This document shows positions 31,501 to 34,500 of a stretch of DNA of 64,000 bases, in pieces. Within the stretch, counting starts at the first letter, position 1. Every line of letters begins with the position of its first letter. Made by a program: the position numbers. Origin of the DNA: Escherichia coli (lineage in GTDB: Bacteria; Pseudomonadota; Gammaproteobacteria; Enterobacterales; Enterobacteriaceae); NCBI RefSeq assembly GCF_009931435.1, contig NZ_CP043414.1, one strand, 5' to 3'.

Positions 31501-34500
31501 ATAGACGTGAATGAAATGGCAGTAAATATTATCTCGATGAATTAATAAGGCGCTGTGAAGGATAAGGGCAAGCGCAAAATTGCCAGATGCGCTACGCTTA
31601 TCTGGCCTGCGCGGTCATTGCAACATATTGAATATAAATGTTTTGTAGGTTTGATAAGGCGTTTACGCCACATCCGACATGAACAACACGCACTTAGCTA
31701 ATTATCAGAGGCACCTCGTAAGGCGCCTTTTTTTAACCGAAGCGAACATCTCGTCCGTGCGGTTCATCGAGATCCTGCCACGGACCAATTGAAATAATCC
31801 CCGTAGGGTTGATGGTCTTATGGCTGCGGAAGTAGTGATTACGGATGTGAGCGAAATTGACGGTTTCGGCAATTCCCGGCATCTGGTAGATATCGCGCAG
31901 GAAGCCATACAGATTCAGGTAATCGCTGATGCGGTGCTTATCGCACTTGAAGTGGGTGACATACACCGGATCAAAACGGACCAGTGTGGTCCACAGGCGA
32001 ATATCGGCTTCGGTTAGCTGGTTGCCGGTCAGGTAACGATGCTGACCTAAAATCTGTTCCAGCCGCGCCAGCGATTCAAACACTTTCGCCACCGCCTCGT
32101 CGTAGGCTTGCTGGCTGGTGGCAAAACCGGCTTTATACACGCCATTGTTAACGGTGTCGTAAATCCAGCCATTAAGTTCGTCAATTTTCGTTTGCAGGGC
32201 TGAAGGGTAGTAATCTCCAGCTTTCGCACCCAGCGCATCAAACGCGGTATTGAACATGCGGATGATTTCCGCTGATTCGTTGCTGACAATGGTGTGGTTC
32301 TTCTTGTCCCAGAGTACGGGAACAGTGACACGTCCGCTATAGTGTGGATCGGCGTGGAGATAAAGCTGATACAGAAACTCATGTTGATAGAGTGTATCGC
32401 CGGTTGCTCCCGGAAAACTGTCATCAAAGGTCCAGCCGTTTTCCAGCATTAACGGGTTCACTACGGAAACGGAAATAAACGGTTCCAGCCCTTTGAGTTT
32501 ACGCATGATCAGCGTGCGGTGCGCCCACGGGCAGGCGAGTGAAACATAGAGATGATAACGATCTTTCTCTGCGGCAAAACCACCTTTGCCAGTGGGGCCT
32601 GGCGCGCCATCGGCAGTGAGCCAGTTACGAAATGCGGAAGCTGAACGTTGAAATTTACCGCCGGTGGATTTGGTGTCGTACCAGGTGTCATGCCAGACGC
32701 CGTCAATCAGTTGACCCATTTTTCTCTCCTCCAATAGCAAAAACGAGGAGCGTTTCTCCTCGTTTGAGACTGATGGCAAACGCAAAACTGCCTGATGCGC
32801 TATGCTTATCAGGCCTACGAGGTTTCTGCAATGTATTGAATTTGCATGTTTTTGTAGGCCGGATAAGGCGTTCACGCCGCATCCGGCATGAACAACGCGC
32901 ACTTTGTCAACAATCTGAAACGAGGAGTGTTCCCCCTCGTTTTTTATCGTTAAGTATAGCGCGTACTTACCACTTTTTATTCAACAGACGGTCGATGCTA
33001 TACGCGCCCGGACCGGTAATCGCCAGCAGCAGGAATCCGCCAGAAATAGTCAGGTTTTTCATAAACATCAGCGAGTTCATGCCTTCTGCAAAATTGCTGT
33101 GAAATAAAAATGCCGTCAGCAGCGTAAAGCCCGCAGTAAACAGGGCAGTGGTACGTGTCAGGAAACCGAACAGGATTGCCAGACCACCACCAAACTCAAG
33201 CAGAATCACCAGTGGCAACATAAAGCCAGGGACACCCATCGCTTCCATATATTGTTGCGTACCCGCGTAGCCAGTAATTTTTCCCCAACCTGCCGTAATA
33301 AACAGAATCGGCATTAAAATGCGTGCGACCAGTACCCCAACATCTTCTAATTTTTTCATCTTACTCTCCACTGCGCCGCTCAGGCTGCTGATTGTTTTTT
33401 TGTGCAAGGGCGCGGTATTAGCGTCGTTGCTTTCGATGGAGAGAATCATAAACGTGGCGAAGCGTGATTGTTAGCAAGGAAAACTGTCAAAATTTTTCAA
33501 AAAATTTGAGGGATAAGGCCGGAATGTCTCCGGCCAGAGAGGAAGTTAACCGCGAAGCTGTTGTTGCTTGAGGGTTGTTTTCACCAGACGCCAGGCGCTC
33601 CATACACCAAAACCGCGTCTGGCCCAGCGGACCAGCATATTGGGATGACGAATCGTCCAGATAGCCATCACACTACTGCCAACCAGCGCCCAGGAGCGCA
33701 GACTCAGCAGCATATTCCAGCGACGATCATAAGCGCCTGTCGCCTCCAGCCATTCACGACGACTGGCGGAAAGATCCAGCCGTTGTTGCTGGATCTGGCT
33801 AAGCAGTTGCGCCTTACGTCGTTCACGTTCGACTTTACTGCTCACGGGACTCCTCCTCGAGCAGTTGCCGATCGTTTGCCAGCTCATGGCGCGTATGGCG
33901 CAGTAAGGTGGATTTACGCGATTTACGTAACGTCCAGATACCGCCAATGAGTGCCAGTAGCAGCAACACCACGGTGGTGGCAATCATCGCATTCAGGCGA
34001 TATTGCGGATCAACCGCCCAGATAATCAGCACCATCAGGCTCATAAGACCAAATGCAGCGAAAAGCATCGTCAGGCCCAGCATCAGTAAAAGCTGAAAGA
34101 GATTGGCTTTTTCCTCTTCCAGCTCCACCACCGCCAGCCGCAGACGTGTCTCCACCATTTCAACCATGATGGAAACAATTCGCTGCCCGATGCCCAGAAC
34201 GCTTTTACCGGGCCCTTGCGCGTGATGAGTGTCCGCCATAATTAACGACGCGACAGCAGAACGCCGAGCACTACACCGATTGCAGCGCCAATGCCCACGC
34301 CCGTCCACGGATTTTCACGCACATACTCATCGGCACGCGCCGCCGCGACACGGGTTTGTTTGGCAATGGCATCACCGGTTTCACCCAGGCGATAACGGCT
34401 CTGTTTCAGTGCCTGCTCCGCTTTGCTACGAATCTTACTCAACTCTTCTTTCGACTTCTCGCCAGATGAGCTAAGCACCTCTTCCAGCGTATCGGAAAGG

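Follow-up and report, generated by a model that had tools for sequence, protein, structure and literature searches.

Repetitive extragenic palindromic (REP) sequences and bacterial interspersed mosaic elements (BIMEs) occupy ∼1% of the Escherichia coli genome and have been known for ∼40 years. The elements termed RIP, RIB, or BIME-1 were reportedly described in E. coli by Gilson in 1991 and by Oppenheim and by Boccard and Prentki in 1993. Their classification has been summarized (Ton-Hoang 2012, PMC3333891); they are located at the 3′ ends of transcription units (PMC3333891, PMC1187871), and their presence or absence is polymorphic among E. coli strains (Chiapello 2005, PMC1187871, citing Bachellier 1997). 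[quoted passage not shown] Here we compare with these systems a complete RIP found in a 64,000-nucleotide stretch of E. coli DNA from contig NZ_CP043414.1 of assembly GCF_009931435.1 (hereafter, the window), where it lies in the 247-nt spacer between yqjF and yqjG, two genes on the minus strand, and is flanked by two related hairpins.

The insert between the hairpins is 152 bp long and 92 to 93% identical, from end to end, to the RIP of the fepA-entD intergenic region, which is present in essentially all E. coli. The homology begins with GAGACTGATG and ends with CAACAATCTG, exactly at the edges of the two hairpins, so the event consists of a complete RIP plus a direct duplication of a whole stem-loop. 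The yqjG-proximal copy (hairpin L) and the yqjF-proximal copy (hairpin R) form a 25-nt direct repeat with a spacing of 177 nt and identity at 22 of 25 positions (88%); the orientation of the loop is the same in both, which shows that the duplication is direct rather than inverted. The arm pattern AAACGAGG-N4-14-CCTCGTTT occurs twice in the 64-kb window and not once in 100 shuffles, and both hairpins appear in the predicted fold of the minus-strand RNA. The complete RIP thus stands between two direct copies of a 24- to 25-nt stem-loop, and these are very probably the two halves of a target-site duplication produced when the RIP integrated at the terminator hairpin of yqjF.

The two copies now differ in what surrounds their stems. 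Hairpin L has a 10-bp stem without a mismatch (plus strand, −14.1 kcal/mol; minus strand, −14.4 kcal/mol; z scores of about −3.2 to −3.5) and reads AAACGAGGAGAAACGCTCCTCGTTT followed by TTGCTATTGG on the gene strand, thereby keeping the ancestral U-tract; a terminator scan calls its minus strand terminator-like. It aligns with the single hairpin of alleles that lack the RIP and with the hairpin conserved in 30 Enterobacteriaceae. Hairpin R folds at −11.4 kcal/mol (plus strand) and, with an extension, at −19.6 kcal/mol (minus strand); its gene-strand sequence, AAAAAACGAGGGGGAACACTCCTCGTTT, is continued by CAG, so that three residues of the U-tract are left. The U-tract that characterizes an intrinsic terminator follows the 10-bp stem of the yqjG-proximal copy as TTTTTGCT on the minus strand, whereas the yqjF-proximal copy has only UUU and then CAG. 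By these features, it is hairpin L that retains the build of an intrinsic terminator of yqjF transcripts.

The preliminary description of this locus was right that two related hairpins flank the RIP and right about the position of the first. It placed the second at 32928-32955, 10 nt away from its actual location, where folding gives no structure, and counted seven T residues after it; there are six, running to position 32945 on the plus strand, three of them paired. Its view that only a part of the terminator had been duplicated has to be replaced: the whole 24- to 25-nt stem-loop was copied, and the RIP adjoins its foot instead of interrupting it. Nor is there a plus-strand terminator with nothing to terminate, as the T6 at hairpin R is the complement of the A-tract of a symmetric gene-strand hairpin. 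It is found there because the ancestral A-tract (positions 32940-32945) stayed with the yqjF-proximal copy and the gene-strand T-tract stayed with the yqjG-proximal one.

A megablast comparison of 701 bp around the site with 5,426 complete E. coli genomes found the filled allele (coverage of at least 80%) in just 88 of them. In the remaining genomes, including those of K-12 MG1655 and ST131, the locus is 178 to 180 bp shorter and carries one hairpin, AAAAACGAGGAGCTTCC(T/C)CCTCGTTTTTT, and no RIP. The hairpin-RIP-hairpin arrangement of the window is shared with SMS-3-5-like strains (∼97% identity to the window) and with seven genomes that are 99.4 to 99.8% identical to it, such as that of E. 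coli 2013C-4282. Escherichia sp. E1V33 carries a filled allele of the window type, and Escherichia sp. MOD1-EC7003 carries an empty one. A scan with YqjG, limited to one genome per species, returned 80 loci; in Citrobacter, Salmonella, Klebsiella, Enterobacter, Kosakonia, Kluyvera, Raoultella, Trabulsiella, and other genera, the spacer is 60 to 80 nt long and contains one hairpin, AAAGCGAGGAG-loop-CTCCTCGCTTTTGCTATCTG, directly 5′ of the yqjG Shine-Dalgarno sequence, with no RIP. Such RIP-free loci with one hairpin are found in ∼60 other Enterobacteriaceae, and an alignment of 30 enterobacterial sequences yields a consensus stem of 11 pairs, 4 of which show compensatory changes. The single hairpin of the outgroup genera and the conservation of its stem identify one hairpin as the ancestral state. 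The ancestral stem-loop, which comes after the yqjF stop codon and before the ribosome-binding site of yqjG, is symmetric, with the order A5-6, CGAGGAG, loop, CTCCTCG, and T5-6; it is conserved as a structure of the gene strand (the minus strand of the window), its working orientation, with a U-tract placed just before that ribosome-binding site. The proposal that the RIP was inserted at a preexisting terminator is therefore borne out: the locus exists in empty and filled forms, and exactly one hairpin, not two, was found at the RIP-free loci of K-12, ST131, most of the 5,426 E. coli genomes, MOD1-EC7003, and the ∼60 Enterobacteriaceae.

The same comparisons bear on the idea that the two hairpins are independent functional structures, a terminator of yqjF and a leader or attenuator of yqjG, which resemble each other through convergence or through a shared anti-Shine-Dalgarno-like CUCCUC and merely happen to have a RIP between them. 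The stems are intact in both copies while the loops have diverged, suggesting selection on both, and CUCCUCG, the 3′ arm, complements GGAGGAG, the Shine-Dalgarno sequence of yqjG. We nevertheless consider this very improbable: the copies agree at 22 of 25 positions, including the ends of the stems, the RIP-free alleles and ∼60 other taxa make do with one hairpin for both jobs, and the hairpin pairs at other RIP loci (see below) differ in sequence while having the same geometry.

The yqjF-yqjG site has been occupied more than once. In Escherichia albertii, it has the structure hairpin-BIME-hairpin, with an element that is 73% identical to that of the window, is oppositely oriented with respect to the genes, does not contain the linker box, and carries another linker and a different REP variant. 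This element is best read as an independent insertion, inversion between the palindromic hairpins being the less likely origin; inversion was rejected as the main explanation because the element is just 73% identical and differs in linker and REP type. A tandem allele, hairpin-RIP-hairpin-RIP-hairpin, with a yqjF-yqjG spacer of 424 nt, is present in at least eight E. coli genomes, including that of E. coli Z0117EC0005 (locus L211, positions 150-600), which indicates that the duplicated hairpins later serve as substrates for unequal exchange, by which a single hairpin could presumably also be restored. At least 15 E. coli genomes carry a remnant allele with half of an E. albertii-type element, of which a single REP and the right-end motif (97% identity over 70 nt) stand beside one hairpin. 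This allele has lost the hairpin near yqjF, the first REP, and the linker; examples are E. coli A30 (L212, 165-303) and E. coli E69 (L007, 1866-2000). Elsewhere in the family, unrelated inserts of 40 to 120 nt lie between the hairpin and the yqjG Shine-Dalgarno sequence in Citrobacter amalonaticus, Citrobacter sedlakii, Klebsiella oxytoca, and Kluyvera, and in Enterobacter sp. ENT03 and Superficieibacter, REP pairs occupy the place of the hairpin (these loci are L027, L032, L052, L070, L073, and L081, positions 1800-2000). The yqjF-yqjG interval is a recurrent insertion site.

These alleles could also be read in reverse, with hairpin-RIP-hairpin as the ancestral state in Escherichia and the single hairpins derived from it by recombination or slippage, so that the RIP did not create the hairpins. 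Direct repeats of 21 to 25 nt that lie 177 nt apart can mediate precise deletion or amplification, as the tandem allele illustrates; filled alleles occur on several E. coli backgrounds as well as in E. albertii and Escherichia sp. E1V33, and an E. albertii-type remnant persists in E. coli A30 and E69. Still, all genera examined outside Escherichia carry a single hairpin without a RIP, and at least one gain accompanied by duplication is therefore required in any case. Moreover, the two elements that fill the site within Escherichia differ from each other and are oppositely oriented, and deletion cannot create the same footprint at three unrelated loci and at 9 of 12 intact RIPs, as described in the next paragraph. 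On balance, deletion from an ancestral filled state seems improbable.

Three other loci are available with both alleles, and each shows a duplication of a whole hairpin of 21 to 23 nt on filling. Downstream of yhaH, the empty allele of E69 (L007:3650-3700) has AAGCACCTTGTGAAAGGTGCTT once, and the filled alleles of E1V33 and E. albertii (L008:3640-3850 and L009:3650-3860) have the 22-nt terminator hairpin, AAGCACCTT-loop-AAGGTGCTT, directly duplicated on either side of the RIP; the two copies in E1V33 are 100% identical, and the shared orientation of their loops makes the repeat a direct one. The window itself has unrelated sequence at this position. At rutG-ymdF, the empty allele is that of MB165 (AAAACCGCCGGGATTACCGGCGGTGATG), and filled alleles with a duplication of 22 to 23 nt are found in a metagenome contig (L160) and in E. 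coli genomes that match it over the full length. At yacH-lpdA, the empty allele of K-12 (AAAAAAAGCGGCGTGGTTAGCCGCTTTTTT) corresponds to the filled allele of CE-O153H30, with a 21-nt duplication of AAGCGGC-loop-GCCGCTT. The stems of the two yacH-lpdA copies are identical, and their 7-nt loops, GTTGTTA and CAGAATA, differ at most positions, the empty allele having GTGGTTA (L209:300-520 compared with L208:215-285); either both stems are under selection or fill-in synthesis is error prone. At rutG-ymdF and yacH-lpdA, empty alleles also reach ∼80% BLAST coverage, so allele frequencies cannot be read cleanly there.

For a broader sample, a metagenome scan with the linker motif returned 120 loci, mostly chance 16-mer matches but including ∼30 true RIPs, which together with the RIPs from the other comparisons gave 23 distinct loci. 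The flank-to-flank alignment score exceeds the 99th percentile of mismatched locus pairs at 8 of the 23, and a duplicated hairpin abuts both ends of the element at 9 of the 12 loci that have both unit ends intact. A strict hairpin lies 0 to 1 nt from the unit end at half of the RIP flanks (22 of 44), compared with a mean of 0.59 in shuffled sequences and with 3 of 44 at a distance 30 nt further out. The hairpins are specific to their loci (CGAGGAG at yqjF, GCACCTT at yhaH, GCGGC at lpdA, and CCGCCGG at rutG), and each corresponds to the one hairpin present in the empty allele of the locus concerned. This is why hairpins were rejected as a part of the mobile element. That they might be extended element termini, traveling with the RIP and not derived from the target, is suggested by the whole 206-bp region forming one long imperfect palindrome, whose 42-nt arms are 76% complementary (inverted repeat I1); given the locus-specific sequences, and given that homology between RIP copies ends at GAGACTG and CAATCTG, we find it scarcely credible.

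These loci suggest a wider generalization, which was absent from the preliminary description: duplication of a whole hairpin could be a general and previously unrecognized footprint of RIP/BIME-1 integration, with RIPs acting as terminator-seeking, MITE-like transposons that break the target ∼11 to 12 nt on each side of the dyad, enter in either orientation, and use the same terminator repeatedly. We hold this generalization tentatively, as a serious possibility that falls a little short of an even chance.

The inserted unit has the organization of a BIME-1: Y- and Z-type REPs in inverted orientation within a single, nontandem unit (152 bp, against the ∼140 to 150 bp expected of the class), placed outside the genes where a transcription unit has its 3′ end, here between the yqjF stop codon and the yqjG start codon (Table 1). 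Its ends are imperfect inverted repeats of ∼15 nt, with GAGACTGATGGCAAA matching the reverse complement of the other end, CAGATTGTTGACAAA, at 10 of 15 positions; these end sequences are conserved across more than 12 RIP loci, and the REP hairpins lie 24 and 30 nt from the ends. The box GCAATGTATTGAAT of the L linker is common to other RIPs, and the linker pattern GCAAYRTATTGAAT matches just the three RIPs of the window, against 0.18 matches expected. On the minus strand, the linker region 32811-32851 matches the Rfam family ES036/CssrF small RNA with 38.4 bits (gathering score, 37.6); both ES036 and naRNA4 appear to be REP/BIME-derived families.

Table 1. Coordinates of the features of the yqjF-yqjG locus in the window
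Feature	Position	Strand	Sequence or content	Basis
yqjG coding sequence	31733..32719	−	Glutathionyl-hydroquinone reductase	Open reading frame list, sequence, and RefSeq annotation of the locus in E. coli 2013C-4282, K-12, and ST131
yqjG start codon	32719-32717	−	ATG	
yqjG Shine-Dalgarno sequence	∼32724-32732	−	GGAGGAGAG	
Hairpin L (yqjG-proximal; candidate target-site duplication copy 1)	32741..32765	−	AAACGAGGAGCGTTTCTCCTCGTTT (plus strand)	
Complete RIP/BIME-1, 152 bp	32766..32917	+	GAGACTGATGGCAAACG...CACTTTGTCAACAATCTG	Full-length match to the fepA-entD RIP
Y-type REP (palindromic unit)	32790..32818	+	iREP orientation, CTAC at end	Sequence; inverted repeats I3 and I8
L linker	32819..32853	+	IHF-type box GCAATGTATTGAAT at 32828-32841	IHF binding predicted only
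Z-type REP	32854..32888	+	GTAG-tagged, GTAGGCCGGATAAGGCGTTCACGCCGCATCCGGCA	Sequence; inverted repeat I4; partial Rfam naRNA4 match
Hairpin R (yqjF-proximal; candidate target-site duplication copy 2)	32918..32942	−	AAACGAGGAGTGTTCCCCCTCGTTT (plus strand)	
CTATACT box	32953..32959	−	7 nt past the yqjF stop codon	Conserved across genera
yqjF stop codon	32967-32969	−		
yqjF coding sequence	32967..33359	−	DoxX family	Open reading frame list; 393-nt extent from RefSeq annotation of identical loci

Other RIP-related sequences are found in the window. A second RIP, in the yqjG-yhaH spacer (31567-31695), is 82% identical to the yqjF-yqjG unit and ∼9 nt short at its left end. Its right end adjoins a hairpin, AGGCACCTCGTAAGGCGCCT, followed by T7 and overlapping the yqjG stop codon, and its left flank retains only TAAGGCGC, possibly a decayed second copy of the hairpin (the flanks are at 31546-31553 and 31709-31735). 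Of two further fragments (13964-14074 and 28458-28538), one is a minus-strand RIP, truncated on the right, that leads straight into the terminator AAAAACCCGCCAG...CTGGCGGGTTTT, and the other is a partial BIME without the end motifs.

The geometry of the duplications is similar at all four polymorphic loci: they start with an A, end with a T, and are symmetric about the dyad of the hairpin. Their length, 21 to 25 nt, does not follow that of the longest palindrome that can be read in the sequence (∼28 nt at yqjF, ∼30 nt at lpdA, 24 nt at yhaH, and 21 nt at rutG). Because it is independent of the stem potential, the breaks look as if they had been measured ∼11 to 12 nt from the dyad and not from the base of the stem. 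Integration could thus have proceeded through a pair of strand breaks that flank the dyad of a short palindrome symmetrically, ∼11 to 12 nt on each side and 21 to 25 bp apart, the stagger being set by a ruler from the dyad regardless of where the longest stem ends; the element would then be joined on both strands, and filling in of the single-stranded hairpin segments would duplicate the palindrome.

The obvious candidate for the enzyme is TnpA_REP, the tyrosine transposase associated with REPs (RAYT), whose substrate is exclusively single-stranded DNA and whose cleavage site is C|T (Ton-Hoang 2012, PMC3333891); it cuts on both sides of the REP palindrome and also far from the bound REP, and it catalyzes strand exchange. 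These properties favor another mechanism for the same event, in which single-strand HUH reactions of the RAYT take place at a replication fork instead of a symmetric staggered double-strand cut. In one version, the element would be joined to the 3′ foot of the hairpin on one strand copy and to the 5′ foot on the sister copy; in another, each strand would gain an insert 3′ of the hairpin that it carries, with hairpin-RIP-hairpin arising afterward by repair of the loops or by sister exchange inside the RIP. A polymerase template switch at a fork stalled by the hairpin belongs to the same class. The RIP is quasi-symmetric and presents a GTAG-tagged REP on both strands, and one-sided RIPs (at L152, L139, and L145) are the products to be expected if the intermediates were simply replicated. 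On the other side, several coordinated events would be needed, no intermediates have been observed, the unit boundaries are not C|T, and the near-constant 21 to 25 nt, independent of stem potential, is explained more simply by one symmetric complex. A fork-based route is therefore somewhat unlikely, although a substantial alternative, and a symmetric cut about the dyad is the version that we retain.

Several points weigh against integration with duplication of the terminator hairpin, or against parts of it. The RIP junctions are ...T|GAGAC and ...ATCTG|A, and the nearest C|T dinucleotides are 5 nt and 2 nt inside the ends; unit boundaries were considered as TnpA_REP cleavage sites and rejected, since T|G and G|A do not coincide with C|T. 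Together with the single-stranded DNA chemistry, this makes the assignment of TnpA_REP as the enzyme weak, and transposition of the IS200/IS605 type leaves no target duplication. The hairpin is present on one side only at L152, L139, and L145 and on neither side at fepA-entD, and the RIP sample was drawn with one linker pattern from metagenome contigs, not from a full genome census. In principle, the E. coli sites that are now empty could have become so by precise deletion between the repeats instead of never having been filled, and the E. albertii-type remnants in A30 and E69 indicate a complex history within Escherichia. Finally, we infer both termination by either copy and the transposition itself.

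If the insertion took place as proposed, it also rearranged the signals between the two genes. On the gene strand, the upstream copy would have lost most of the U-tract, leaving UUUCAG, and the downstream copy would have kept it as UUUUUGCU, being likely the terminator or else a 5′ leader hairpin directly before yqjG. With the U-tract-bearing downstream copy as the likely terminator, the RIP would now lie in the 3′ untranslated region of yqjF. The predicted regulatory outcome is a divided terminator, one copy having a short U-tract and the other a full one, with a RIP added to the 3′ untranslated region between them.

Two observations concern the possible role of the hairpin upstream of yqjG. 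The conserved hairpin has a 3′ arm, CUCCUCG, that complements the Shine-Dalgarno sequence GGAGGAG located ∼16 nt downstream (within 32724-32765, minus strand), and its 5′ arm mimics the Shine-Dalgarno sequence, a relation that holds across genera and, read as base pairing, suggests possible alternative pairing or translational control. In addition, the CTATACT box past the yqjF stop codon is kept in almost all of the 80 orthologous enterobacterial spacers and may be a −10-like element, which would place the hairpin in the 5′ leader of yqjG. A simple promoter scan of 32400-33300 called no promoters, the CTATACT box included, which leaves a yqjG promoter at this box unsupported.

For the window alone, the outcome is modest, an ordinary strain-variable RIP insertion in the yqjF-yqjG spacer. 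The recurrent footprint of whole-hairpin duplication merits the attention of specialists. Filled and empty BIME-1 alleles at four loci, with precise ends and a 21- to 25-nt duplication of a terminator hairpin, are the opposite of an absence of transposon-like signatures, and insertions are seen in both orientations at one site, yqjF-yqjG. They constrain any mechanism to a palindromic target, cuts that are symmetric about the dyad, and subsequent fill-in synthesis. Should the footprint prove general, it would be the first concrete sequence signature of the spread of REPs and BIMEs and would account for the location of RIPs at the 3′ ends of transcription units. In the accessible literature, no account of BIMEs or REPINs that describes the duplication of whole hairpins was found; the papers of the 1990s (Bachellier 1997, Boccard & Prentki 1993, Oppenheim 1993) fall outside this scope, so that a prior description there is possible.

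Compared with the described systems, the 152-bp insert is a typical RIP/BIME-1, a single-copy extragenic unit at a 3′ end, with a Y-type REP and an inverted Z-type REP, a long L linker, and an IHF-type box. It departs from the published picture in having defined ends, with imperfect, putative terminal inverted repeats, and in being accompanied by a hairpin duplication of 21 to 25 nt. The REPIN/RAYT systems and the “peel-and-paste” IS200/IS605 elements offer a possible parallel in the subterminal hairpins: the REPs lie ∼24 and ∼30 nt inside the ends of the RIP, as hairpins do in IS608, and the RIP is likewise non-autonomous, with the single-copy TnpA_REP as its candidate enzyme. However, IS200/IS605 elements insert 3′ of a short specific sequence and make no target duplication, and TnpA_REP cleaves at C|T, whereas the RIP shows a long palindromic duplication (at the four polymorphic loci and at 9 of the 12 intact RIPs) and junctions of T|G and G|A.

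Like the classical MITEs (ERIC/IRU, Correia/NEMIS, and RUP), RIPs are small and non-coding, have putative terminal inverted repeats as well as direct target duplications, are polymorphic between strains, and are able to alter 3′ untranslated regions. The duplications of MITEs, in contrast, are short and fixed (2 to 10 bp) and set by a DDE transposase, whereas that of the RIP is 21 to 25 bp long, centered on a palindrome, variable in sequence, and always a stem-loop. To our knowledge, there is no cognate insertion sequence with RIP ends.

The choice of target resembles that of group IIC introns, which are said to insert just after the stem-loops of intrinsic terminators (as attributed to Robart, Seo, and Zimmerly, 2007). 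In both cases, the target is a terminator-like DNA stem-loop and not a sequence, and insertion at its foot does little harm; unlike the RIP, which encodes nothing, these introns retrohome to one side of the hairpin and produce no duplication. The ancestral yqjF-yqjG hairpin, for its part, is similar to intrinsic bidirectional terminators in being a GC-rich stem-loop between an A-tract and a T-tract, with covariation across Enterobacteriaceae. It differs from them in its position ∼16 nt before the yqjG Shine-Dalgarno sequence, to which its 3′ arm is complementary, so that by this pairing potential it may also act as a leader structure, and in the fate of its tracts, which after the insertion are split between the two copies, the A-tract with one and the T-tract with the other.

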